57,415 nucleotides of DNA from a virus (lineage: Duplodnaviria; Caudoviricetes), in the IMG/VR virus record IMGVR_UViG_3300022707_004402, positions 1 through 57,415 of that record. One strand, 5' to 3'. The notes beneath the pieces were generated by a model that did no database searches, had not been told where the DNA came from, and worked only from the letters and a program-made list of their open reading frames with translations. Position numbers and translations under genes: made by a program. Each line of letters opens with the position of its first letter. The stretch's first letter is position 1. Of the stretch, positions 1 to 55,778 are shown piece by piece.

Positions 1-1859
1 ATTCTGGGGACCTCGCCCTTGAACATGCTGTAAAAAGCCGGCGCCTTATTCAAACTCTCTGGTATCAGCGGATGTGGGATAATATCACAATTGTCAGTGA
101 CCAGAATGTTAAAAGCCATTTTGAAAATGATCAGTCTGGTCATCGCATTGCCACTTCCGTGGGTGGATCCGCAACCGGTCAAGGTGGTGATTTCATTATA
201 TGTGATGATCCGCTTAGTGCCCAGCAAGGCCAATCAGACGCCTATCGAAAGGCCGCAAATGATTGGTGGACTACCACAATGCATACCCGGCTCAATGATA
301 TGAAGGTCGGGGTTAGGATTATTGTGATGCAGCGCCTTCACGAAGATGATCTGACTGGCCATGTCCTGGAACTGGATGGCACCAAATACAAACACATTTG
401 CCTACCCGGAATGGAATCCCAGGACATCAGCCCCCCGGAAGTCAAGAAAAAGTATGTGGAAGGCCTGTTTTTCCCGAAACGATTTGACATGGACTACATG
501 GATGACACCAAGAAAAAAATGGGATCCTATCAGTTTGCCGGTCAGATTCAGCAACGGCCCAGTCCGGATGAGGGTGGAGTTTTTAAACGCTGGTGGTGGC
601 GCTATTGGGTTCCCCGGGGGCAATTGGATCAATATCCCCCAATTAAATTGAAGAATACCGAAGGTAAGGAATTCCATGCAATTATTGAGGAGCTGCCCGA
701 ACGGCATGAGCGTCACATCAATAGCTGGGATATGTCATTTAAAGACCTGGAGGAAAATGATTATGTGGCAGGCGGACACTGGGCTAAAGCCAAGGAAAAA
801 TTATATCTGATCGAACAAGATCATGGCCAATACGATTTCGTGAAAACCTGTGAACGGGTGGAATTTTTATACAAGCGCAGCGGCCAGCCATCGGCGGTAT
901 ACATTGAAGAAAAAGCCAATGGACCAGCCGTGATATCCAGCATGAAACGGAAAATCCCCAGTATTATCGGGGTCAATCCCAAGGATTCCAAAACTGCCCG
1001 GGCCATGCCATATTCGGTCCAAGTAGAAAACGGGAATATTTATTTGCCTCATCCTGATTATAAACCTTGGGTGCACAAATTCATTGATGAACATGCGGTA
1101 TTCCCTTTGGGTCTCCATGATGACCAGGTGGATGAATCCAGCCAGGCCGTGGATAAGCTGGTGGGCGCCGAACGGGTATGGGAGGCTTATAATCCTGATA
1201 AGCTCCTGAACGACAAAAAGCCGGCCAAGAGATACTTTAATGTCAATTGGACAAATATCACTGATCGCAGCACCGCAACGTTCTCAGCGCTCTATATGGA
1301 CAAGAATTACTCAATCAGTGGGCTATTCACGGTTTGGGATATGTCCCTTCGAAAGCTTTTTGTGCACCATGAATTTGTGATGAAGAACCCCACGGCCGAA
1401 TCCATAACCCCGCTGGTCCGGAAATGGGGCCAGGTACATTATAGTTCCCGGGTATTTGGCTCAAAGGATATGTTTGGTGAAGGGAAAACCATTTCAAATT
1501 TGCTGAATAAATTCAAAATAAGACTCAGGGAAAACGTGAATTATGATGAAAATGGATCTATTTTAATGGCAAATAAAATGTTTAAACTTGGAATGATAAT
1601 TGTGCACACAGCTTGTCCGATATTTGATCGTCAAGTCTTGACATGGGAAATCGAGAAGGATAAGCCTCAAAAAAAAGGGGTGGGGTTATGCATGTGCTTG
1701 GCTAATATTGTCAGCGCTCTCCGGAATCAGGGGAAGCTTTCCCCGATTCAGGTGCCCCCGCCCTATACCAAATACCGGCAGAGAAGAAGACAGCAACTCA
1801 AAACCGCCAAAACTATGTTGCCAAATACCAAGTCTCACCAAGATTTTTTATTAGGATGA
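1..1859 (+). CDS. terL: Terminase large subunit, 5'-truncated by the window edge, with a long C-terminal extension
   Basis: Frame is open from base 3 (SGDLALEHAVKSRRLIQTLWYQRMWD). Motifs GGSATGQGGDFIICDDP (Walker B region), IVMQRLHEDDLTG, SWDMSFK, YIEEKANGPAVI and HDDQVD (nuclease). The Walker A part lies outside the window. Confidence 0.95.
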   Translation, partial: SGDLALEHAVKSRRLIQTLWYQRMWDNITIVSDQNVKSHFENDQSGHRIATSVGGSATGQGGDFIICDDPLSAQQGQSDAYRKAANDWWTTTMHTRLNDMKVGVRIIVMQRLHEDDLTGHVLELDGTKYKHICLPGMESQDISPPEVKKKYVEGLFFPKRFDMDYMDDTKKKMGSYQFAGQIQQRPSPDEGGVFKRWWWRYWVPRGQLDQYPPIKLKNTEGKEFHAIIEELPERHERHINSWDMSFKDLEENDYVAGGHWAKAKEKLYLIEQDHGQYDFVKTCERVEFLYKRSGQPSAVYIEEKANGPAVISSMKRKIPSIIGVNPKDSKTARAMPYSVQVENGNIYLPHPDYKPWVHKFIDEHAVFPLGLHDDQVDESSQAVDKLVGAERVWEAYNPDKLLNDKKPAKRYFNVNWTNITDRSTATFSALYMDKNYSISGLFTVWDMSLRKLFVHHEFVMKNPTAESITPLVRKWGQVHYSSRVFGSKDMFGEGKTISNLLNKFKIRLRENVNYDENGSILMANKMFKLGMIIVHTACPIFDRQVLTWEIEKDKPQKKGVGLCMCLANIVSALRNQGKLSPIQVPPPYTKYRQRRRQQLKTAKTMLPNTKSHQDFLLG

Positions 1860-4344: not shown

Positions 4345-4731
4345 ATGCATATGGCAGGTCTCAGTAAAAAGGAGAAAAAACAAATTCTCCTTAGCAAGAC
4401 TCTCGGCCAGGCCGTCCCTCAAAAGGAAGGCAGCGACGCTATGATTCCTGTCGGAGATACAGGTGATGATACTCAGCTGAATTTCTACGGCCGGGATAAA
4501 ATGAAGGCCAGCGCTCTTCCGATTACTGACATGGAAAAAAAGGACGGGCGCGTTACTTTCGAGATTATCGTAGAGAGAAAAACCATTGATCAAAAAGAAG
4601 TGGTTACATTCGGTGTCCGGAAATACAATTATCAATCTGGAATGGATGAAACCATTGAAAAAGATTATTCTTCGGCTGAAGGGCTGATTGAATACTGTTT
4701 GGAACCAACCTTAAAGGGTATCAAACTTTAA
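4345..4731 (+). CDS. Hypothetical protein
   Basis: 128-aa ORF, TAATG-coupled to the portal gene. Confidence 0.75.
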   Translation: MHMAGLSKKEKKQILLSKTLGQAVPQKEGSDAMIPVGDTGDDTQLNFYGRDKMKASALPITDMEKKDGRVTFEIIVERKTIDQKEVVTFGVRKYNYQSGMDETIEKDYSSAEGLIEYCLEPTLKGIKL

Positions 4732-6914
4732 TGCCTCCAATTGCTCCCAGCGATATTGCTTTCGAAGGGGCGGGTGCGGTTACCCAACCGATCACCTATC
4801 CAGACCTACTTATCCGGCGTCAACAGGTAATTTCTGGGACGGATGAGGAAAAGGTTCGTTGGATTTACAGCCTCTATAACAAATATCACGATTTTTGGCG
4901 CACTGATCGTGAGCGAATGATTCGAAACATGCGGCTTTTTTGGGGCGCTGATTATGCTCAATGGCCGCAATATATCGTTGACCGTCTGAGGGCAGAAGGC
5001 CGGCAGGCCCCCACCTACAACATTGTTTCCGATAAAGTGGAATCAATGGCCTCCATGATTCTCAAAAATGATTTCGATATGAAGTTTGAGCCCATGACCG
5101 GGGAAATTGATTCCCTGACTCTTGAGGCTCAGGACATCATGTATTCGGATAAGGAGCTCATGGACTGGGATGCCAGTAAGGTGGATTTTTTGGTCAAGGG
5201 AATTACTCATGTCGGGTGTGAGCGCATGATCGTATCTGATCGGTATAATCCCATGGGAAATGTTGGGTATGTTTCTGAGGATCCTTTTATGCTACTCCGG
5301 GATCCAAGCTGGAAAAGCACGGATGGTCGGGATTTAAAATCTTTGTTTAAATTCGGGTATTATGATCCGGATGAAATCATTGATCATTATCCCAATAAAT
5401 CCGAGGAAATAAAACAGCATCAGGAAAAAATTCTGAAGGAAGGCCCTGAGTTTGGGCCCCAAGATATTTATTTAAATCCTTATGTGGATACCCGCTGGGG
5501 ATCTAAATGGCTTGTGATTGAATGGCATCATATTCGTGAAGAGGAGCGTTGGTGGGAATATGATCTCAGAAATGGCACTCCTTTCCCGGAGACTGATGTT
5601 CAAGGAAAACAGCGTTATGTTGAAAAAAATGGTCTTGGTGACGACGAGATCACATGGATTAAGCAAAAGCTGAATCGATATTATGTAACTTCAATTATCC
5701 CTGCCTTGGGATATCAATTTTTGTTAGAAGATCGGCTTCATGAAATCCAGGTTGATCGCCTGCCTTTCTTTTTCTGGGGAATTACCCGTTTTAATGGTCA
5801 ATATCGTGGTCTCGGTGATTTGCTTTATGATCCGCAGATCAACATCAATAAAAACGAAATGGATATGGCTGATATCAGATCCCGAGCAGCCCGTGGTTCG
5901 TTTTTCATAGATCCGGAAATTGTTGATGGTGATCCAGAAAAAATGCAGGAGATTGAACTCAATTGGAATAGTGCGGCTGCTCGTATATGGACTGAACACG
6001 GGAAATTGGCGGAAGGAAAAAAATATCTCCTGGAGATTCCTACGTCCCATATTCCCAGTGATTTAGTTCAAAACACAGACCGAATGCTTTTTATGGCTGA
6101 TCGGCTGTCAAAAGTCCAGGCGGCCCAGCAGGGACGTGCGGAGAGTGGTCAGGAATCCGGCCGTCTTTTTCAATCCAAGTATGAGGCTGGGATTATCAGC
6201 ATGGGAATAATCAACAAAACACTAATGCGCCATGAGAATGACAAGGCTGAAGCATATTTGACCCAAATCAAATCTACTTATGCCGGACCCGAAAGACAAT
6301 TTGCTCGGGCAGGTGGGGGCCAGCCAATTAATATAAATCAACGAATGATCTTGGAAACAGGAGAAGTTGGAATCCGGAATAACATCAGCCGGCTACCCCG
6401 TCACAAAATCATCATTACTCAATCCCCCAAAGGCATTGATGTACGCACAAACAAACGAATTGTTAATGCGGAGCTCATGAAGCAATCGATTGACAAGCCT
6501 TTGATTTCCCTTGTGTTTTTCGGGAATGTTTATGAAACCATTGAGGCGTCCGATGATGAAAAAGAAGAATTTAAAAAAGCCTTGGAGTTGGAAAAAAGTG
6601 TTGCCGCATTGCGTCTTGCAAATGAGGCTACTGTTTTACAGGTTACCATGGTCCAAGCTCAATTGCAATATCAAAAAATGACCGGACAGGAAATGGATAC
6701 GAGATTAATTGACAGTATTGCCAGCGGTGGGCCTAAAGGTACTGGAAAATTATCTCCAGGAGATGTTCCTCCAAATATCAGTGGAAAGGATGAACTGGGA
6801 CCAGGAGGCGGCCGACCTCTTTCGGCTGGGAACATTGATCAATTAATTGGAACACCACAACAAGGTAAACAAGAAATCCAAGCCATTGCATCAAGAGCAG
6901 GTGCTGTAACATGA
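4731..6914 (+). CDS. Portal protein (P22-like)
   Basis: 727 aa; motifs QWP...LRAEGRQAPTYN, GLGDLLYDPQININK and ESGRLFQSK are typical of P22-type portals; lies before scaffold and capsid genes. Confidence 0.85.
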   Translation: MPPIAPSDIAFEGAGAVTQPITYPDLLIRRQQVISGTDEEKVRWIYSLYNKYHDFWRTDRERMIRNMRLFWGADYAQWPQYIVDRLRAEGRQAPTYNIVSDKVESMASMILKNDFDMKFEPMTGEIDSLTLEAQDIMYSDKELMDWDASKVDFLVKGITHVGCERMIVSDRYNPMGNVGYVSEDPFMLLRDPSWKSTDGRDLKSLFKFGYYDPDEIIDHYPNKSEEIKQHQEKILKEGPEFGPQDIYLNPYVDTRWGSKWLVIEWHHIREEERWWEYDLRNGTPFPETDVQGKQRYVEKNGLGDDEITWIKQKLNRYYVTSIIPALGYQFLLEDRLHEIQVDRLPFFFWGITRFNGQYRGLGDLLYDPQININKNEMDMADIRSRAARGSFFIDPEIVDGDPEKMQEIELNWNSAAARIWTEHGKLAEGKKYLLEIPTSHIPSDLVQNTDRMLFMADRLSKVQAAQQGRAESGQESGRLFQSKYEAGIISMGIINKTLMRHENDKAEAYLTQIKSTYAGPERQFARAGGGQPININQRMILETGEVGIRNNISRLPRHKIIITQSPKGIDVRTNKRIVNAELMKQSIDKPLISLVFFGNVYETIEASDDEKEEFKKALELEKSVAALRLANEATVLQVTMVQAQLQYQKMTGQEMDTRLIDSIASGGPKGTGKLSPGDVPPNISGKDELGPGGGRPLSAGNIDQLIGTPQQGKQEIQAIASRAGAVT

Positions 6915-7002: not shown

Positions 7003-8322
7003 ATGGGCGTAGAAAATGCTCAAGCTGTCACTGTCGAGACTATGGATGATGCGCTGAAGGGTAAAACCTCGGCCCAAATATCCGAAATGATTGATAGTGG
7101 AGAATTAAATGATGTGATTAACGATCCGGGTGCACGTAAAAAATTGGTGGATATGACCCATGCATTGGCGAATAATTCTACTAATAATGCGCCTGATGTT
7201 GATCCAGAAGCCGATCCGGCTGCCCCGAAGGCTACAGATCCTGACCCGAACGATCCTGGAGATCCCTCAAAAGGAGATCAGTACGGTGGATATGGAAGCC
7301 CGGAAGCATTGTTAAAAGCGACGCAGGAAGCCCAGAATATGGCCGCTTCTCAGAAGGAACATCTTGATTCCCTCAATAGTCGCATGGGCACAATAGGATC
7401 GGAAAAAAAAGCCCTGGAGGAAGAAAATGCCCGGCTGAAAACTCAGTTGGATACTAAGCCTCCTACAGGTGTAGAGATTGTCCCGGATACGAGGACTTCT
7501 CCTGTTAATCCAAATGATTTAATTCCACCACCACCACCCCCAGACGGGGATTATCTCGGTGTAGATTATTTGGCCTCTAAAGCCAAATATGATAAAGCGG
7601 TGGCAGATCAGCTTACGCATCTTTCTAACGAAAATGCAAAACTGAACAAAGCGAATCAGGATTTATCAGGAAAAATCAATCCGATTGAATCCGATATCAA
7701 AACCACCAAAGAGACTCAGGATAAAAAAGCGGCTTCCGAAAGCTTGATAGGATTGTATTCAGATTTGGATGCTTTTCAAAAAAGTCAGGCTAAGGCGGGT
7801 AATCCTTATTGGAAGACTTCAATTCCAATTAGTGATCTCGACGCTAAAATTGTGTCTCTTGGAAAGGAAGATGCTCAAAAATTGTTACCGCCCCATGACC
7901 TTGAGGTTCATACCAAGCTTTCTGCGGTATTGCAGAGTTATGGGACATTTGATGAAAAAGGCGTCTTTCAAAAAAATACGGCATTTAATTCGTTTGATGA
8001 AGTGATGTTACTTCAGTCTAATAGGGACGGATCTCTGGACCAAAAAACCAAAGACGCAGTGACCAAAGCGAGGGTGGATGCCTCTCGTGAGGTCGTGGAA
8101 AAAATAAACCAGAGAGGAGATACTGCGGACACGCTCCCGCCCGGTTCATCCGGATCCAGTGAAGCTGAAATGCAATTAACACAACAGCAAAAAACTGAAC
8201 AGCTTAAAACGTTACTTGCAATACCTTCCCATGAACTACGGCGATCTGCTCCGAAATTGGAACAGTATTATAAACTGTCCAAGGAACTCGGGGTTAATGT
8301 CCCACAAGTAAAGGCTCTCTAA
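7003..8322 (+). CDS. Putative capsid scaffolding protein
   Basis: Between portal and capsid; acidic Asp/Pro-rich N-terminal region, YGSPEALLKA motif, coiled coils. Confidence 0.7.
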   Translation: MGVENAQAVTVETMDDALKGKTSAQISEMIDSGELNDVINDPGARKKLVDMTHALANNSTNNAPDVDPEADPAAPKATDPDPNDPGDPSKGDQYGGYGSPEALLKATQEAQNMAASQKEHLDSLNSRMGTIGSEKKALEEENARLKTQLDTKPPTGVEIVPDTRTSPVNPNDLIPPPPPPDGDYLGVDYLASKAKYDKAVADQLTHLSNENAKLNKANQDLSGKINPIESDIKTTKETQDKKAASESLIGLYSDLDAFQKSQAKAGNPYWKTSIPISDLDAKIVSLGKEDAQKLLPPHDLEVHTKLSAVLQSYGTFDEKGVFQKNTAFNSFDEVMLLQSNRDGSLDQKTKDAVTKARVDASREVVEKINQRGDTADTLPPGSSGSSEAEMQLTQQQKTEQLKTLLAIPSHELRRSAPKLEQYYKLSKELGVNVPQVKAL

Positions 8323-38239: not shown

Positions 38240-38381
38240 TACAGGGCTTTCACCTGTTGCGGCGGTGCATCCCAAAGACGGGTAAGCCCTTGGTCCCCTC
38301 TGCCTGCTTTCATAGTGCAGAACCCTTTCGGGCCGGTGGTATCTGAAAACAAACTGCATTCCCTGTCGTTTAACCGCACAG
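38240..38381 (-). ncRNA. Structured RNA unit of array 1
   Basis: TGCGG/CCGCA stem, TGCAG/CTGCA stem with CCC-GAAA-GGG, and a 3' T-arm-like hairpin ACAGG-TGAAAGC-CCTGT. Confidence 0.55.
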
Positions 38382-38390
38382 AAATTAAAT

Positions 38391-38479
38391 GGCGCGTAAT
38401 GGGATGACTAAAGCATTGCAAACCCGAAGATTCACAACGTAGCTAAACCTTTCGATAAAGCCCACCCCACTATTACGCC
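38391..38479 (-). ncRNA. Structured RNA unit of array 1 (three-way junction)
   Basis: GGCGTAAT/ATTACG(CG)CC and GGGGTG/CATCCC stems; one GAAA-capped and one C-TTCG-G-capped arm, with several G-U pairs on the minus strand. Confidence 0.65.
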
Positions 38480-38489
38480 AAATTAAAAA

Positions 38490-38606
38490 AGACTGCACCA
38501 GGATTCGAACCTGAACGGGCTGAAAGCCCACAGGGTGACCCCTGCGCGTCTACCACTGGTACCCCAGACAAAGTTTGGATATGCTTTGTATTTCCGCCAT
38601 ACAGTC
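38490..38606 (-). ncRNA. tRNA-like RNA (class II scaffold, expanded D-loop, collapsed anticodon loop)
   Basis: 7-bp acceptor GACTGTA/TGCAGTC; TGGCGGAA...GGTAGACGC D-arm with two inserted hairpins; GCAGGG-GTCA-CCCTGT anticodon arm; GGGCT-TTC-AGCCC variable arm; TCAGG-TTCGAAT-CCTGG T-arm. Confidence 0.75.
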
Positions 38607-38613
38607 CTTTAAA

Positions 38614-39676
38614 TTATTTATTCTCCCCAGCCTTATGAATTCTTTCTATTTCATCATCCACAGTTTTCTTTGCCAGCTGCAATTGTTCCAGAGTGGCACC
38701 AAGTAATGATTGCTGATTTGGGAACAAACTGAAAAGTAATTTATTGGTATACTCTTTGCCTGCCGTTTGAAGCAAGCCCTCGCATGATATGCTGTATTCA
38801 TTTTGAGCGGCTTCCAGATCAGTAATGGGAGTAGATTGTTTTGGAGTTGGATATTCCGCTGGTTTTTCAGTTTTATTTGCGGCCGGTTTTGTTGGCTTCG
38901 GTTTTGTTGGTTTTTCATCGGTTACAATCTCAGCCTCAGCCGTAGTAACATTGGCAAAATCTTCTCCATATTCCACTTTATTATCATGATCGATTGCTTC
39001 GAGCAGTTCAACGCTCATAGGCATTAGTATTGAATGTCGGCGTATGGCAGTTTTTCTTCCCATGGCAGAAAAATTATTAATCCAGGGGCCACTATCTTTT
39101 GCTTTAGACATTTCTCTGGCTCTATTCACACCCACCATTTATGAGCTTGGTGTAGCAATAAAAGAATTTAGGTTTTCCGACGCCATGATTGTCTCCATAG
39201 ATATGCTTTAAGTGGCCATTGGACCCAAATTCGTATTCAAAAAGATCACCCTCATAAACTACATCGGGATGAATATTGGCAAGCTGTCCTGATCGATAAG
39301 CCAGATCAATGTACCCCCGGTATCCAACAATAAAAGTAGCTTCCATCTTTTTGGTTTTTCCGTTTTTAAACGGGATTAAATGTGACTGTTGTAAGGGCCC
39401 GTCAGGCTCAAGTCCTAATTGACAAGAATCTTTAACAGCCAATATTATTGAGGTTGGAGAACAATCTAAAAGTATGGGATTTCTGGTTAAAGTTGCTTGA
39501 ACAACCTTAAAAATACGTTTTTCTGTCAAATGCTTTGGTGATATTGATACAATATCGGTTAAGGATTTTTCCAACTTAATCAGAGTTTCTGATTTGTTTT
39601 TTTCACGACTGGTAGTTAATTTTCCGGTGAGTTGGCTTTGCATGGATTCTGCGGCCATATCTTTTGTTCCGGCCAT
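38614..39676 (-). pseudogene. recT: RecT-family ssDNA annealing protein, disrupted by an apparent internal deletion/frameshift near 39130
   Basis: N-part: LLDCSPTSI...LGLEP, IVGYRGYIDLAYRSG, VVYEGD.FEY. C-part in another frame: SKAKDSGPW...MGRKTAIRR...PMSVE. About 10 conserved residues are missing at the junction. Confidence 0.8.
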
Positions 39677-39702: not shown

Positions 39703-40620
39703 TTATTTTTTCCGTTTATTTAAAGCTTTTTGTTTTTTTACAAGTAGAGTCCGGGTAGCCGGGGAATCTACGGTATAATGCCGGGGCTTGCCCAATTTAA
39801 ATGTGGCGATTGTGATGCTATTGTGTTTGATGACTTCATATTCACCACAAGCCACCTTAATTTGATTTTTCAAATCTTCTTTTTTATCGTCGAGAATCTT
39901 GATTTCTGCATTGTTTTTTATATAATCTTCGCAATATTGAACGACCTCCTGGCTGACTTCAATGCTTTCACCCTCATAATATACAGTGAGCTTGGTCAAT
40001 TCTCCGGCGGTGAGGGGTGGAGATTTTTTTGGAATCACATATTTATGCCACCAGTCATGGCATTCAGTGGTCATTTCTTTGATGAAACCATCATCCCGTT
40101 CCAGGGCCAGCCGTTCAAATTTCCGGCCGCCAACCAACAAAGCAAATTCTCCCCATTTCCAGCCAGTGACAGCCAGCTCATGCTGAAATTGGCAATAATA
40201 ATTTAAAGGGATTTCTTCTTGCCAGGCTTTGTACATATTTTCGGAAACACATTTTATTTCCAGCACCCCGGGCCCCCGACCATCATTGTTATCAATTATT
40301 TCCCGGTCCAGGTTGACCAGGAGCTCCGGGTATTCAGAATGGATGCGAATAATTTTATCTTTCCGGACTTCCCGCTTTTGATCCTCAACCCATTTTTCAG
40401 CAATGGGATCTTCTAAGCGGACGCCCCATTCCGTGGCCTCATTGCCCCCCCAATGGGGGGTGATACCCAGTTTATCCTCCCAGACATCCTTCTGGGACCG
40501 ATATTCATTTACGCCAACGACGGCACCGACATCGGACCCGCCAATGCCTTTGCGACGTTCATTGAGCCATTGTTCATGACTCAAATTTTCCTTGGGAATT
40601 GAAAGAACTTCGACCATCAA
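39703..40620 (-). CDS. YqaJ-family viral recombinase/lambda-exonuclease-like nuclease
   Basis: WLNERRKGIGGSD, WG..LE..IA, NLDR, LEIKC and YYCQ.QHEL.VTG motifs; upstream of recT. Confidence 0.93.
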   Translation of the reverse strand: MMVEVLSIPKENLSHEQWLNERRKGIGGSDVGAVVGVNEYRSQKDVWEDKLGITPHWGGNEATEWGVRLEDPIAEKWVEDQKREVRKDKIIRIHSEYPELLVNLDREIIDNNDGRGPGVLEIKCVSENMYKAWQEEIPLNYYCQFQHELAVTGWKWGEFALLVGGRKFERLALERDDGFIKEMTTECHDWWHKYVIPKKSPPLTAGELTKLTVYYEGESIEVSQEVVQYCEDYIKNNAEIKILDDKKEDLKNQIKVACGEYEVIKHNSITIATFKLGKPRHYTVDSPATRTLLVKKQKALNKRKK

Positions 40621-40678
40621 ACCTCCTTTGTTTAATCCAACCTTTTATTAAGATATACTATTGTGTTGTCAAACACAA
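40621..40678 (-). promoter_or_regulatory. Leftward early promoter and leader of the yqaJ-recT operon
   Basis: TTGTGT-17-TATCTT, then 6 nt, then the leader AGGTTGGATTAAACAAAGGAGGT; overlaps a TTGTGTT/AACACAA inverted repeat. Confidence 0.55.
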
Positions 40679-47588: not shown

Positions 47589-48097
47589 TATTTCTTTAAT
47601 TTATTCAAGTTAGCGAACGATCCAAACAATTCACTGGCGGCATTATTGTAGGCACAGGCAGCATCAACCTCTTTTTTAAAAACACCCAAATAAATTTGTT
47701 TTCTATTTTTTTTGATATAAGCCACCCATTTTTTTAACCTCTTGTTCCAACAGACCCCCTTATACACGGAAGTCCCTTTTGAACTTCGGCTATTATAACA
47801 GTTTTGAGCTTGGGTACAAATTCTTAAATTAGATTTTCGGTTGTCAAAAATATTTCCATTAATATGATCAACTACTCGTCGGTCCCATGGCCAAGCCCGC
47901 AAAATTTCTCTGTGGAGATGATAGTTTTTTTTACGACAATTATTAGAATGATTGCCAATTGAAGCGGTTCTTAAAATTCCTACGGGTTTTTTAATTTTAG
48001 AATCATATCTAATGAGCCATTTAAATTGGGATAACCATTCAAAATCAATATCATCAACCAAAGCAACTTTACCATTTCTTAATTTAATTTCTTCCAT
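47588..48097 (-). CDS. HNH homing endonuclease with AP2 DNA-binding domain
   Basis: ALVDD.D, LHREI...VDHINGN..DNRKSNLR.CT..QN, SVYKGV.W...W.AYI...YLGVF..E..AA.AYN.AA..LFG.FA.LN. Confidence 0.92.
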   Translation of the reverse strand: MEEIKLRNGKVALVDDIDFEWLSQFKWLIRYDSKIKKPVGILRTASIGNHSNNCRKKNYHLHREILRAWPWDRRVVDHINGNIFDNRKSNLRICTQAQNCYNSRSSKGTSVYKGVCWNKRLKKWVAYIKKNRKQIYLGVFKKEVDAACAYNNAASELFGSFANLNKLKK

Positions 48098-48263
48098 TTT
48101 TCCTCCTCTGATCAGCCAGCCGGATTCTCAAATTGTGTCCTTCCCTGGCCACGTCGGAGATTGTGACACTGGTTCCCCGCCTTTGAGATTCCTCCAATGC
48201 GATTTCCCGCATTCGATTCCACTGATCATCCTGGATATAAATATTTCGACGGGTTGATTTCAT
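48084..48263 (-). CDS. Ribbon-helix-helix (CopG/Arc-like) protein, 59 aa
   Basis: MKSTRRNIYIQDDQWNRMREIALEESQRRGTSVTISDVAREG...; below the track cutoff, ATGA-coupled. Confidence 0.65.
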   Translation of the reverse strand: MKSTRRNIYIQDDQWNRMREIALEESQRRGTSVTISDVAREGHNLRIRLADQRRKNGRN

Positions 48264-49353: not shown

Positions 49354-49662
49354 TTATTTGATTTTGTAAAATTTCCGGCATTGTTCCATGTACGTTTTAA
49401 ACGCAGGGACCTCACCAAAGCTTTCAATCCGAATCTCGCCAATGATTTGAGTAATGGCCACCAGCCGTTCATTGTTAATCCAGACTTGGCGCCCATTATG
49501 AATGCAAAAGGACGCATAAATCTCGAAACCCGGAGGAATGTCAAATACGAATCTCCAGTTTAGAAGTTTTCCCGTCCAGCATTTATAGGATTTACACCAA
49601 TTCAATGCCGGCCAGGGAGATGGCTTTGGACAATACTTATTTGTGAAATCAGTGAGATTCAA
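49354..49662 (-). CDS. Hypothetical protein
   Basis: 102 aa, TTG start behind GAGGA. Confidence 0.55.
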   Translation of the reverse strand: MNLTDFTNKYCPKPSPWPALNWCKSYKCWTGKLLNWRFVFDIPPGFEIYASFCIHNGRQVWINNERLVAITQIIGEIRIESFGEVPAFKTYMEQCRKFYKIK

Positions 49663-49672
49663 CGCTTTTTCC

Positions 49673-49831
49673 TCACTTATTGGTTTTTTTGGGTTTGTAA
49701 TTTTTATAAATTTCGATTAATTCCTTCTTAAAACTTTCGGTCATTGAAAGGTTATTCGTTATAAATTCATGTCCTTGGCCTTCTTTTTTGGCCATTTTAA
49801 CCATTTGAATTAAGTGTTTTTTGACCGTCAT
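49673..49831 (-). CDS. Small hypothetical protein (52 aa), first gene of the leftward early operon
   Basis: MTVKKHLIQMVKMAKKEG...; AAAGGAG RBS just downstream of the promoter. Confidence 0.55.
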   Translation of the reverse strand: MTVKKHLIQMVKMAKKEGQGHEFITNNLSMTESFKKELIEIYKNYKPKKTNK

Positions 49832-49867
49832 TGAAAAACTCCTTTGTTAAAAATCCAACCTACACAC

Positions 49868-49947
49868 AATCTACACAATATACACACGAATGTCAACACA
49901 AGATTTGTGTATTAAAATATTGACTAAATGGCAGAATAAAGTATTTT
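49868..49947. promoter_or_regulatory. Main divergent promoter region
   Basis: Minus: TTGACA-17-TAGATT with TGTG extension (49896-49868), then the leader AGGTTGGATT. Plus: TTGACT-16-TATTTT (49920-49947). An ACACAA-GAT-TTGTGT palindrome lies between them. Confidence 0.7.
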
Positions 49948-49953
49948 GATAGT

Positions 49954-50115
49954 ATGGAAGTAAAGAAAATCAAATTTTCGGATAAGTGCCCCATGTGCGA
50001 TGGCCATGGTCACATCGAGGTTTTCTGTACAGATCATAAGCAGGATAGGCAAACCGAGATGTGTCCCGAGTGTCAGGGCGCCGGCATATTATCTGGACTT
50101 GCTGTTGTTAATTAA
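49954..50115 (+). CDS. Small DnaJ-type zinc-finger protein (53 aa)
   Basis: CPMCDGHG...CPECQGAG, two CxxCxGxG repeats; apparently leaderless. Confidence 0.7.
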   Translation: MEVKKIKFSDKCPMCDGHGHIEVFCTDHKQDRQTEMCPECQGAGILSGLAVVN

Positions 50116-50119
50116 TCAT

Positions 50120-50192
50120 TGCGGGGTAGATCAGTTGGTAGATCGTTGGGCTCATAACCCAAAGGCCACCGGTTCGAGTCCGGTTCCCGCTA
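50120..50192 (+). tRNA. tRNA-Met(CAT), initiator-like
   Basis: Cloverleaf with TTGGG-CTCATAA-CCCAA anticodon arm (three G-C pairs), unpaired position 1:72, ACCGG-TTCGAGT-CCGGT T-arm; CCA not encoded. Confidence 0.93.
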
Positions 50193-50199
50193 AATTTAT

Positions 50200-50265
50200 G
50201 TGGGCTGAAAGTCCTTAACTGGAGCCCTCCCACCGGTTCACCCCAGGGGACGAGGGGATGCCCAC
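50200..50265 (+). ncRNA. Structured RNA unit of array 2 (possible pseudoknot)
   Basis: GTGGGC/GCCCAC closing stem; GTCC/GGAC and CTGG/CCAG stems; loop CCCTC complementary to downstream GAGGG. Confidence 0.55.
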
Positions 50266-50273
50266 TCCTTTTA

Positions 50274-50335
50274 GCCAGGACAAGTGATTGCCTGGGAAAT
50301 CACGACCGTTTAGGCGTCACTGCCGGCGGCCTGGC
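50274..50335 (+). ncRNA. Structured RNA unit of array 2
   Basis: GCCAGG/CCTGGC closing stem; GTGATT/AATCAC hairpin whose loop GCCT can pair with downstream AGGC; followed by T8. Confidence 0.5.
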
Positions 50336-50345
50336 GCTTTTTTTT

Positions 50346-50491
50346 GGACCGTGGCGGAATTAGTAAGAGTCGCAATCTTACCAAAGACGCAGGCCGAAGT
50401 GGGTACGTGGATAACCAATCCTACAAAACGCGGGAATAGCGACCAGGACAGGCTTCCCGCAATCCCTTGGTGAAAGTCCTTGGGCGGTCCT
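50346..50491 (+). ncRNA. tRNA-like RNA with expanded D-loop and no canonical anticodon arm
   Basis: 7-bp acceptor GGACCGT/GCGGTCC; GGCGGAAT...AGACGC D-arm with an inserted GTAAGA/TCTTAC hairpin; GCGGGAA/TTCCCGC arm; T-like arm with a TGAAAGT loop. Confidence 0.65.
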
Positions 50492-50500
50492 AAAATTTAA

Positions 50501-50594
50501 GTGGAGGGAGTATTCCCCCTGATTCTACGAAAGTGGGAGACTGGGTAAAAAAGGGAATGCTGGCATTAAGCGAGGGTTGGCGAAATGCTTTCAC
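50501..50594 (+). ncRNA. Structured RNA unit of array 2
   Basis: GTGGAGG/CTTTCAC closing stem, AGTATTCCC/GGGAATGCT stem, TTCTAC-GAAA-GTGGGA hairpin, GCATT/AATGC stem; abuts tRNA-Ile. Confidence 0.55.
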
Positions 50595-50666
50595 AGGCCC
50601 GTAGTCCAACGGTTAGGGCGCCAGTCTGATAAACTGGAAACGATGGTTCAATTCCATCCGGGCCTA
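50595..50666 (+). tRNA. tRNA-Ile(GAT)
   Basis: AGGCCCG/CGGGCCT acceptor, CCAGT-CTGATAA-ACTGG anticodon arm, GATGG-TTCAATT-CCATC T-arm. Confidence 0.92.
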
Positions 50667-50684
50667 TTTAAATGAAGGAATTAA

Positions 50685-50855
50685 ATGAGACCTGAAATGG
50701 AAAGCCGGTTTAAAACCGACCACAAGCATGAATGGATTTTTTGGGGAGAAGAAACCAGCGTTTTTGAATTTCAGCCGTCCAAGCTAATTTATATCTGCGG
50801 GTATATTGGATGCGAATGCAGACGCGTTGAATTTTCAGGGCCGACAAAGATTTAA
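50685..50855 (+). CDS. Small hypothetical protein (56 aa, His/Cys motif)
   Basis: MRPEMESRFKTDHKHEW...YICGYIGC; AAGGA RBS. Confidence 0.5.
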   Translation: MRPEMESRFKTDHKHEWIFWGEETSVFEFQPSKLIYICGYIGCECRRVEFSGPTKI

Positions 50856-50982
50856 CTTAAAATGTACGCACGATTTGCACAAGAATGTATATTAACTCTT
50901 TAAATATTAGCGCCGAAAGAAATGTGGTGTGTGTAGTATTAAATCTTTATATATTAATTCCCAGAGTAAAAGTTACCTAAAT

Positions 50983-51112
50983 AGGCAATTGATTTAGCGC
51001 ATTGAGTTCAGTCTGCTAAGAAGTTTTCGATGGCATCGCTTTCTTCCCAACGACCGACCTCCTTTGAAAGATCCAACCGATCTCAATCAAAGTAAATCAG
51101 TTGCCTTTTTTT
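50983..51112 (+). ncRNA. Candidate trans-acting small RNA with an anti-SD loop
   Basis: 14-bp closing stem AGGCAATTGATTTA/TAAATCAGTTGCCT + T7; ATTGAG/CTCAAT inner stem; unpaired ACCTCCTTTG-N4-ATCCAACC. Confidence 0.55.
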
Positions 51113-51125
51113 ATAATTTTAATTT

Positions 51126-51240
51126 CTAATTGACAAATATCACCATTTTACCACACTAATTGACGGCAATCATGGTCAATTAAACAAGGAAGATTCCATA
51201 AATTTGTCAATCGACGTTTCTTTCCTTTTTTTATTGACAA
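51126..51240. repeat. Cluster of ATTGAC/GTCAAT direct and inverted repeats upstream of terS
   Basis: CTAATTGAC twice; ATTGACAAAT/ATTTGTCAAT 10-bp inverted pair; TAATTGAC/GTCAATTA inverted pair; a fifth ATTGACAA near 51233. Confidence 0.55.
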
Positions 51241-51323
51241 AAAGCTACCCCATCTTTTAAATTTTAATTAAATTAATAGCTGAGAGAACACATGGCCGAT
51301 TATGGTCGAAAGATTTGTTCAAA

Positions 51324-51947
51324 ATGGCTGCACAAAAGAAAGATAATGTTAAAGCACCTTCCGGCTTAAAAAATCCCAAATCCAATTTACAGCCAGCCTT
51401 TAATGCACCAAAACGTGTAGCCAAAAAGAAATCCAAGAAAAAGAAAAGACCAGTCGGTAGGCCCAATATTTCTCAAAAAAATCTCGTTGACTTTTTGTTT
51501 CTTTACGGTTCTACTTCGATGTCCATGAATTCAGTCGCAAATAAACTCGGAATCGGTGTGCGCACAATTTGGAATCATATCCAGAAAAACGACGAATTTA
51601 GGCGCAAATACGAAGATACCAGGAAAAATAAAGTGGAGGTCCTTATTGAGGAAATTCTGGATGTGGCCGACGATGGCACCAATGATTGGATGACCAACAA
51701 ACAGGGCGAGGATATCATAAATCACGAGGTTGTCCAGCGCAGCCGCCTCCGCGTTGATGCCCGAAAATGGCTGGCCTCCAAATTTGTTCCAAAAATGTAC
51801 GGAGAAAAATTACATACAGAGCACAGCGGTAAAATAAAATTTAATGATAACTCGGTTGAAGCCATGTCCCAAGAAGAACGCAAAAAGGAAATAGATCGAA
51901 TGATTTCTCTCAGACAGCTCCATCCCGATGCCACCTCCCAGAATTGA
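51324..51947 (+). CDS. terS: Terminase small subunit
   Basis: HTH region followed by EILDVADDGTND...EVVQRSRLRVDARKWLASKFVPKMYG, a typical TerS motif; start may be TTG 51315. Confidence 0.9.
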   Translation: MAAQKKDNVKAPSGLKNPKSNLQPAFNAPKRVAKKKSKKKKRPVGRPNISQKNLVDFLFLYGSTSMSMNSVANKLGIGVRTIWNHIQKNDEFRRKYEDTRKNKVEVLIEEILDVADDGTNDWMTNKQGEDIINHEVVQRSRLRVDARKWLASKFVPKMYGEKLHTEHSGKIKFNDNSVEAMSQEERKKEIDRMISLRQLHPDATSQN

Positions 51948-52437
51948 TTCCATTAAGAACATTGATCGTGACCTCGATTATCGGGTGCACACCGATGTCA
52001 TGGGATTAAAATATTATACCGATAAAAAAAATCTTCCCGATACTAGCAATGATGACATGATTCTGGAGCCTTCCAAAATCACTTATGTGACTACCACGCT
52101 CTGGAATGAGATTCACCGGGGCAGCCCGTTAATGAATATTGAGCTCGTTCCCTATTATTCGAGCAATCCCAACGACGCTATCCGGATCCAGAGCGTAATG
52201 TCCGAACACGGGTTTGCTACTAATACGGAATACAGTCCCGATAAAAAATCTATTGCCGTGGGGTTTTTTATGATGCCGCTGACCCCTCAAACCCCTCAAG
52301 GCCTTGCCCAACACGAAACCATTTCCCGAGCTGCTTGCTTTGCTGCATTGGCGGCGCTCGAGGATAAAAAGAAAAAGAGTGAACTTTTAAAAAAGGAGAT
52401 GCCAAATGAGAAACGTGACCAAACTGGAGCTAGTTAA
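51928..52437 (+). CDS. Phage ABA-sandwich-like domain protein
   Basis: LD.RV...VMG, VPYYSSN.NDA and AQHETISRAAC.AAL.A. Confidence 0.65.
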   Translation: MPPPRIDSIKNIDRDLDYRVHTDVMGLKYYTDKKNLPDTSNDDMILEPSKITYVTTTLWNEIHRGSPLMNIELVPYYSSNPNDAIRIQSVMSEHGFATNTEYSPDKKSIAVGFFMMPLTPQTPQGLAQHETISRAACFAALAALEDKKKKSELLKKEMPNEKRDQTGAS

Positions 52438-54753: not shown

Positions 54754-55122
54754 ATGATCAAAGAAATCCGAATCTGGGACAGAACCATGAAAACCATGGA
54801 ATACGGGAATATGTACGAATTAAGCCCCACTGGGGCCCAGGATGAGGTTGTGATGCAGGGCACCGGTAAAACTGATCGAGCAAATAATGATTTATACGAT
54901 GGTGATTTGGTCCGTAATGACACCGGCCGCATGGGTAAAATTTGTTGGTTCAAGCACGGCGCTCGATGGGATGTGACGGCGGTCAATGCCATGGGCGAGC
55001 CTGGGGAGGATTTCGATCCGGTCAATTGGGAACGCAAGGTTTTGAAAGTCGGGAACATCTGGGAGAATCCAGAAATCTTGGAAAGAAAAATTCCACCTTA
55101 TAGAGGAGTGGCAACACAATAA
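54754..55122 (+). CDS. YopX-family protein
   Basis: EIRIWD...MQGTGKTDRANNDLYDGDLV...VGNIWENPEIL. Confidence 0.9.
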   Translation: MIKEIRIWDRTMKTMEYGNMYELSPTGAQDEVVMQGTGKTDRANNDLYDGDLVRNDTGRMGKICWFKHGARWDVTAVNAMGEPGEDFDPVNWERKVLKVGNIWENPEILERKIPPYRGVATQ

Positions 55123-55155
55123 TTATATTTGTGTAAGCTTAACAAAGGAGATGCC

Positions 55156-55401: not shown

Positions 55402-55778
55402 TGCCAAATCCAAATGATGCGCCGCTTGACCCGGCCATAAGAAAAAAGATGCAAGCCGAAGCAGAAGCGGCTCCCAAAACTGAGGAAGCGCCGGCGCCGG
55501 CACCAAACGCTCCGCCAAAGCCAACTGAACCCCCTCCGGTACCAGCACCGGAAGCGGCACCAGATGCACCCCCGGAATCGCCACCCGCTCCTGCAGACGC
55601 GGCTCCTATTACCGAGGCAGACCGGACGGTGACCACCAAGGATGGTCAGAAAATCGTTTTCGGAAGCCTGGAGAAGAAGCAGCAGTATTTGGTGAATCAG
55701 AGCCAGGAAACGGATCGAATCACAAATAAGGGCGGATTGCGCCAGGCCATCAATCAGACCAAGAAAATCAATGGCTAA
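55401..55778 (+). CDS. Pro/Ala-rich hypothetical protein
   Basis: Start moved to ATG 55401 behind AGGAGG; low-complexity PA/PE linker. Confidence 0.65.
   Translation: MPNPNDAPLDPAIRKKMQAEAEAAPKTEEAPAPAPNAPPKPTEPPPVPAPEAAPDAPPESPPAPADAAPITEADRTVTTKDGQKIVFGSLEKKQQYLVNQSQETDRITNKGGLRQAINQTKKING

Follow-up and report, generated by a model that had tools for sequence, protein, structure and literature searches.

A terminator-like element ahead of the small terminase gene of a marine-sediment phage, and its possible role as an antisense RNA to two early leaders

The DNA analysed here is a linear virus record of IMG/VR, estimated to be 79% complete, and its whole stretch of 57 kb (57,415 nucleotides) is referred to below as the window. 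It is present in two DNA runs, both of one marine-sediment study, and the contigs of both runs are identical over the element and the leaders described below, so that they offer no variants. A gene map built from a greedy ORF map, PHROGs and Pfam divides the window into plus-strand late and structural genes, a leftward early block and a rightward block in which every called gene and both tRNAs lie on the plus strand (Table 1). The terL frame (1-1859, plus strand) extends without interruption to position 1, which indicates that the record starts inside this gene. The element belongs to the rightward block, where it follows a 56-aa ORF for which PHROG and Pfam searches returned no family match. 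Downstream of it, and ahead of the gene for an Sf6-type small terminase (terS), are three ATTGACAAA boxes; no further exact copy occurs in the window. An inverted repeat, TTGAC-N10-GTCAA, lies between the boxes (region 51129-51241), just upstream of terS. Boxes and repeat could serve in the control of a late promoter or in the binding of the small terminase (pac); one published study reportedly concerns late activators upstream of terS.

Table 1. Positions of the genes, signals and sequence elements discussed in the text.
Feature	Positions	Strand	Remarks
Late and structural genes	window start to ~35.2 kb	+	from the gene map
Portal gene	4731-6914	+	
Leftward early block	35.3-49.8 kb	-	exonuclease, RecT, O-like replication protein, methyltransferase, HNH nucleases
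RecE/YqaJ-like exonuclease gene	39703-40617	-	ATG at 40617; PHROG 434, 7.6e-70
Leader copy 1 of the bipartite word	40621-40642	-	ahead of the YqaJ/RecE-like exonuclease gene
Leader copy 2 of the bipartite word	49839-49860	-	ahead of the 52-aa gene that opens the long leftward early operon
Promoter TTGACA-17-TAGATT	49896-49868	-	precedes the 49860 leader
Plus-strand promoter candidate	49920-49947	+	the only one upstream of the element; divergent from the early leftward promoter
Rightward block	from 49954	+	in order: Zn-ribbon ORF, tRNA-Met, tRNA-Ile, 56-aa ORF, element, ATTGACAAA boxes, promoter-like site, terS
tRNA-Met	50119-50193	+	Rfam, ARAGORN
Terminator-like hairpin (50321-50336) with T8	50321-50345	+	plain hairpin
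tRNA-Ile	50595-50666	+	Rfam, ARAGORN
56-aa ORF	50685-50855	+	between tRNA-Ile and the element
Whole element	50983-51112	+	closing stem, ~96-nt interior, T7
Closing stem, 5' arm	50983-50996	+	pairs with 51093-51106
Hairpin C	51004-51061	-	22 bp, 4 G-U; buries GAG of the SD and the UUG start codon
Copy 3, anti-SD block	51057-51066	+	ACCTCCTTTG on plus, SD CAAAGGAGGT on minus
Hairpin B	51062-51092	either	loop shows CAACC (plus) or GGUUG (minus)
Copy 3, ATCCAACC block	51071-51078	+	GGTTGGAT on minus; last 5 nt are a hairpin loop on either strand
Closing stem, 3' arm	51093-51106	+	pairs with 50983-50996
T7 run	51106-51112	+	tail of the terminator on plus, A7 preceding the stem on minus
Promoter-like GTGATA-16-TAAAAT, 9/12	51143-51116	-	directly upstream of the element on minus
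ATTGACAAA boxes, three exact	51129, 51203, 51233	+, -, +	downstream control region 51129-51263
Promoter-like TTGACA-18-TAAATT	51234-51263	+	ahead of terS
terS, Sf6-type small terminase	51324-51947	+	PF20901, 6.8e-22; PHROG 1482

The closing stem that an earlier sequence-only reading had proposed for the element proved sound. It comprises 14 bp, including one U-G pair on the plus strand, with T7 directly after it, and a scan of both strands of the window for long-range pairs of 13-nt arms adjoining runs of T found no other perfect (13/13) case. On the plus strand the element resembles an ordinary intrinsic terminator, in that the stem is followed directly by seven U residues at the end of a co-directional gene group. 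It differs from one in having 96 nt between the arms, where a compact hairpin has a loop of 3-8 nt, and in an interior that holds a non-random leader copy; the distance between the arms is also the reason that a consensus terminator scan (loop 3-8) omits it. The whole element folds to -36.7 kcal/mol on the plus strand (z -3.9) and to -48.6 kcal/mol on the minus strand (z -6.5), the latter ranking 4th of 3819 windows genome-wide. The rod-like shape previously ascribed to the RNA therefore describes the minus strand, but not the plus strand, whose interior without the closing stem is at the level of shuffles (z -0.3; 65 of 200 as good). Because the 5' arm is free and the plus interior unstructured before the 3' arm is made, the closing stem can form during transcription. 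Read on the plus strand, the element would form the tail of the 3' UTR of the 56-aa ORF.

No match to the element was obtained with any of 4227 Rfam models, either at gathering score in searches of the window or at E <= 10 in searches of 50850-51320 on both strands. A retron, a 6S RNA, a Y RNA and a riboswitch were set aside on this ground, and no reverse transcriptase was found nearby. ARAGORN reported neither a tRNA nor a tmRNA at the element; a tRNA-like origin was likewise rejected, the similarities to the two tRNAs being 10-12 nt long and on opposite strands. A MITE-like insertion was dismissed, since the arms have no second copy and a target duplication is absent.

Within the interior lies one of three copies of a bipartite word. 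The pattern GGTTGGAT-N{3,8}-CAAAGGAG matches three times in the 57 kb (40623-40642, 49839-49860 and 51059-51078), always on the minus strand, and none of 100 dinucleotide shuffles gave any match; inspection of the sequence located the three words exactly where the sequence-only reading had put them. The feature is real and non-random. As GGTTGGAT alone is not enriched (5 found versus 2.84 expected) and the second half (ACAAAGGAG) is common around the SD sequences of this phage, what is non-random is the linkage of the halves, which are spaced by 4, 4 and 6 nt in a word that is not palindromic. In 16S rRNA of the E. coli type, the anti-SD at the 3' end is preceded by eight bases that are identical to GGTTGGAT (51071-51078, 40635-40642 and 49853-49860, minus strand). 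An RNA from the plus strand would in that case contain an anti-SD copy beside the complement of the adjoining rRNA bases, which may be a coincidence.

Copies 1 and 2 had been regarded as the leader of both leftward early operons. At the 49860 leader this stands, as the word there follows TTGACA-17-TAGATT, whereas the yqaJ leader is less surely the 5' end of an mRNA because its -10 element is poor: TTGACA and an operator-like inverted repeat can be read by eye, and the promoter scan does not list the site. Should the yqaJ promoter be TTGACA-16-TAATAA, again a by-eye reading, transcripts would start inside GGTTGG and lack half of the target. In addition to the word, copies 1 and 2 have in common TTGACA and TTGTGT/ACACAA operator-like repeats. 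Such inverted repeats occur at exactly three places (40661-40678, 49896-49910 and 55114-55134; 0.02-0.04 expected), and each overlaps or adjoins a promoter-like region, namely that of the yqaJ unit, the divergent early promoters and that of a rightward ORF at ~55156, whose leader also ends in TTAACAAAGGAG. Judging from these sites, it looks as though one repressor acts over three early promoters through the repeats.

The similarity of copy 3 to copies 1 and 2 ends exactly at the two blocks. All 16 of its 16 motif bases are intact, its flanks are without any similarity, and a search for a longer duplication around it found none; so sharp a limit fits blocks under constraint better than a duplication in decay. 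This bears on the possibility, which we judge unlikely, that the element is a plain terminator or insulator separating the tRNA unit from the packaging operon, and that its leader copy is a functionless relic of a recombined promoter-leader cassette. A stem with T7 does end a co-directional unit here, terS has a promoter-like site of its own 120 nt further on, and paralogous promoter/operator/leader cassettes exist at 40661, 49896 and 55114, all in keeping with such an origin. A terminator, however, has no need of 96 nt between its arms, the other plus-strand terminator-like site (50321-50336) being a plain hairpin, and a relic should decay gradually, yet the intact motif stands in dissimilar flanks and within a well-formed hairpin. 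That other site, with its T8, may itself stop part of the rightward transcription earlier.

The positions of the copies could also suit a DNA site for a phage regulatory protein, which would bind just downstream of both early promoters and, at copy 3, on the margin of the late control region. Transcription start regions overlap with copies 1 and 2, and copy 3 lies 50 bp from the three exact ATTGACAAA boxes. What makes this very unlikely is the construction of the word, with its varying half-spacing, its lack of a palindrome and a half that is simply the phage's usual SD context. Moreover, the distance that stays constant is that to the SD and the start codon, whereas the distance to the -10 elements varies (2 versus 7 nt).

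An RNA read from the plus strand of the element would be complementary to both leaders. This complementarity, in short blocks of 8 and 8-10 nt around the ribosome-binding sites of the phage's own mRNAs, is real and non-random (3 matches versus 0 of 100 shuffles), and at the 49860 leader it is stronger than the sequence-only reading had claimed, extending over 12 + 8 bp with a 2-nt bulge, the sole differing base giving a G-U pair. In a ranking of 71 start regions by the duplex energy of a 30-nt segment, which leaves out the cost of opening the RNA's own structure, the yqaJ leader came first (-32.8 kcal/mol) and the 49860 leader second (-28.7 kcal/mol), ahead of the HNH nuclease start region at 48097-48130 (-24.7 kcal/mol) and a median of -11.6 kcal/mol. 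That third region, on the minus strand, contains a look-alike of the word (GGCTGG, 8 nt, AGGAGG). A whole-genome scan with a 53-nt core placed the yqaJ leader best and the 49860 leader fourth of the non-self windows, out of 5738. Once the full 130-nt RNA was folded with its own structure counted, the net gains fell to -7.5 kcal/mol (third, tied) and -5.0 kcal/mol (sixth of 71), and two unrelated start regions outscored the leaders. Given the small net gain and these ranks, specificity would rest on loop-initiated kinetics rather than on equilibrium energy.

By folding, both target leaders are unstructured. In the ensemble, the anti-SD block of the element has a mean unpaired probability of 0.34 on the plus strand and 0.14 on the minus strand, and the ATCCAACC block one of 0.63 on the plus strand. 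The words had been described as unpaired on the plus strand; ACCUC and the CAACC loop are indeed open, but CUUUG and AGAUC are paired.

The clues to the strand conflict. The T7 run and the open seeds point to the plus strand, and hairpin C points to the minus strand, where it folds to -24.4 kcal/mol (z -4.5; 1 of 200 shuffles as good), compared with -11.1 kcal/mol for the same region on the plus strand (z -0.24; 81 of 200 as good). All four imperfections of its arms are G-U, and G-U pairs number five on the minus strand versus three on the plus strand. Hairpin B on the minus strand alone gives -11.9 kcal/mol (z -3.4). These folds raise the possibility, doubtful in our view though it deserves to be weighed, that the functional RNA is made from the minus strand. 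Such an RNA would present the leader a third time, locked in its fold, with GGUUG in a loop and the SD and UUG start codon in the 22-bp hairpin. Its role would be that of a mini-cistron gated by structure, or of a decoy for a factor recognising GGUUGGAU in the early leaders. Copy 3 is oriented like both working leaders, and since all three copies have one orientation, parsimony suggests a shared role on the same strand. The fold is among the most stable of the genome, as given above, and the promoter-like GTGATA-16-TAAAAT lies directly upstream on that strand, where TTGTCA-17-TAAAAA can also be read by eye. A TTG start stands 7 nt past GGAGG, within the 5-9 nt expected between SD and start codon.

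Set against this, there is no gene behind the minus-strand copy. The TTG opens only 18 codons, in a strongly basic frame with 7 Arg/Lys, and no frame longer than 30 aa was found on the minus strand of 50856-51256, the longest (30 aa) having no SD of its own. A type I toxin mRNA was rejected on the same frame, which despite the locked fold is basic and not hydrophobic. With its SD block at the 0.14 given above, copy 3 is poorly accessible on the minus strand, while leaders 1 and 2 are unstructured, and it would be a poor ribosome site. Promoter-like sites of the 9/12 class are at chance level in this genome (36 found versus 27.7 expected), the run of U that follows the fold on the plus strand is missing on the minus strand, the neighbouring genes are all on the plus strand, and a candidate leader-binding protein was not identified.

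The strand asymmetry of the fold can be calibrated with 70-nt windows across the genome. By this measure the element ranks only about 23rd, and in the other top asymmetric windows the stabler strand was the gene strand in 19 of 29, a weak predictor. The most stable 130-nt fold in the window, at 7516-7645 on the minus strand (-53.1 kcal/mol, z -6.4), is antisense to a plus-strand structural gene; as modelled, it would represent either an antisense RNA or chance. Because of this calibration and of a top minus-strand fold that is antisense to a coding gene, we count the asymmetry as worth a factor of roughly two at most. Weighing all clues, we consider the plus strand the likelier relevant RNA strand, by a clear but not a large measure.

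We therefore return to the plus strand, and tentatively favour, with rather less than even confidence, the reading that the element acts as a terminator domain and gives rise to an RNA antisense to the two early leaders. Directly observed are the motif and its orientation, the stem with T7, the accessibility profile and the duplex ranking. Building on them, we infer that a plus-strand RNA would reach the element and end there, accumulate, and pair with the leaders in the cell. The rightward transcription unit with the tRNA genes would have the element as its 3'-terminal domain, and the 14-bp closing stem and U7 would end plus-strand transcription ahead of a separately promoted packaging operon. 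An RNA of ~130 nt, released or processed at this point, would carry the inverted early-leader box, and its open ACCUC and its CAACC hairpin loop would nucleate pairing with GGUUGGAU-N4-6-CAAAGGAG(G) in both leftward early leaders. By covering the Shine-Dalgarno sequence such pairing would block initiation or invite cleavage of the duplex, so that the direction of the effect would be repressive and the outcome a c4-like trans-antisense RNA against the phage's own early messages. The plus-strand neighbours, the plus-strand terminator, the accessible seeds and the top two duplex ranks all support this anti-leader reading; it is weakened by a minus-strand interior that folds better (z -4.5 versus about -0.2), by the third and sixth ranks with own structure counted and by the want of a dedicated promoter. 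As an interpretation of sequence, an antisense sRNA is possible and unproven.

As to the timing of any such effect, the sequence-only reading had placed a shut-off of early translation at the early-to-late switch, which we find unsupported. No promoter-like site of >=9/12, and hence no dedicated plus promoter, was found on the plus strand of 50856-50983, and the sole plus-strand promoter candidate upstream of the element, being divergent from the early leftward promoter, would fire early. A use of both strands would account for the plus terminator together with the minus-only hairpin. In such an arrangement, which we regard as highly improbable, the plus-strand 3'-end RNA would silence the early operons, and a short minus-strand RNA, transcribed from the weak promoter at the ATTGACAAA boxes, would by its fold mimic the leader and soak up the anti-leader. 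If that long shot held, the balance of plus and minus RNA would set when early translation stops.

The closest analogue in mechanism to the proposed anti-leader RNA is the c4 RNA of P1 and P7 (Rfam C4, RF01695). Recognition by c4 is bipartite, through two short blocks, and the RNA is cut from a longer transcript by RNase P. The C4 covariance model gave no match to the element at gathering score or at E <= 10. The element also differs from c4 in being ~130 nt long, closed by a terminator stem and situated after tRNA genes, and in having two putative targets at the heads of separate operons, at distances of 1.2 kb and 10.4 kb. A review describes c4 as an RNA of phage origin whose action depends on short segments complementary to the surroundings of the ribosome-binding site in an mRNA of the same phage; these segments are thought to lie in loops (PMC12197685). 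The same source describes StxS as a regulatory RNA that arises when a phage transcript is terminated (PMC12197685). Transcripts of the host and of the toxin are the targets of StxS, which recognises them through Hfq-type seeds, whereas the putative targets of the element are the phage's own early leaders. A protein counterpart is found in T4, whose RegB endoribonuclease inactivates many early phage mRNAs at Shine-Dalgarno sequences (PMC3014915). RegB is a nuclease that cuts GGAG, unlike the RNA proposed here, which would cover the SD and an 8-nt specificity box. If the plus-strand reading is true, one small RNA at the boundary of the packaging genes would switch off two separate early operons through a common 8-nt address and the ribosome-binding site. 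It would be the equivalent in RNA of T4 RegB, and its resemblance to P1 c4 would be a distant one. At present the element is a single orphan sequence with conflicting strand clues.

Searches of INPHARED and of viral, metagenome and genome contigs found no relatives that keep the element region. A blastn search of INPHARED with 49600-52000 as query returned 47 records, all of which matched the tRNA-Met part only, or 3% of the query. In viral contigs, single-protein searches with terS and with YqaJ gave 0 relatives each, a terL search gave 1 locus (34% identity) and a two-sequence terS alignment gave 13 loci (31-48% identity). The same alignment found 224 relatives in metagenome contigs, from which 80 were kept (34-53% identity). 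These best 80 of the 224 had terS alone in common with our phage; the motif was absent, and no blastn match to 50860-51320 was obtained (E <= 1). Motif scans gave 12 matches in viral contigs, about the chance expectation and none of them related, and at least 120 matches across many phyla in genome contigs, with none related among the matches listed. Upstream of Sf6-type terS genes, CCTCC occurred within 400 nt in 9 of 66 loci (12 sites versus 28 of GGAGG), and no pattern of anti-SD sequences was found. The closest terS protein, at 51% identity, is on a 4.5-kb contig outside the loci compared.

Several further features of the window deserve mention in their own right. RecT is encoded in two overlapping ORFs (38614-39676, minus strand), one of 184 aa matching profile positions 3-176 and one of 174 aa matching 190-344; the gene is either truly split, frameshifted or misassembled. 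In the gap that separates recT from the gene after it, 38356-38500 folds strongly, to -47.6 kcal/mol on the minus strand (z -3.7), compared with a z of -0.15 on the plus strand. The fold is on the transcribed strand, where it may mark a site at which the early-operon transcript is processed, or else a structured RNA. A G+C-rich island at 55440-55620 (plus strand) is a Pro/Ala-rich low-complexity coding stretch and no RNA. The spacer between the two tRNA genes (50194-50594, plus strand) comprises 400 nt, is richer in G+C and carries a duplicated TGAAAGTCCTT; Rfam gave no match in it, and its fold is no better than that of shuffles (z -0.7). Part of it, 50385-50490, is resembled by a 4.8-kb contig of one sequencing run. 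Also within the spacer, a 22-nt piece of 50463-50500 recurs exactly in four unrelated viral contigs of 100-120 kb, with only ~41 nt alike.
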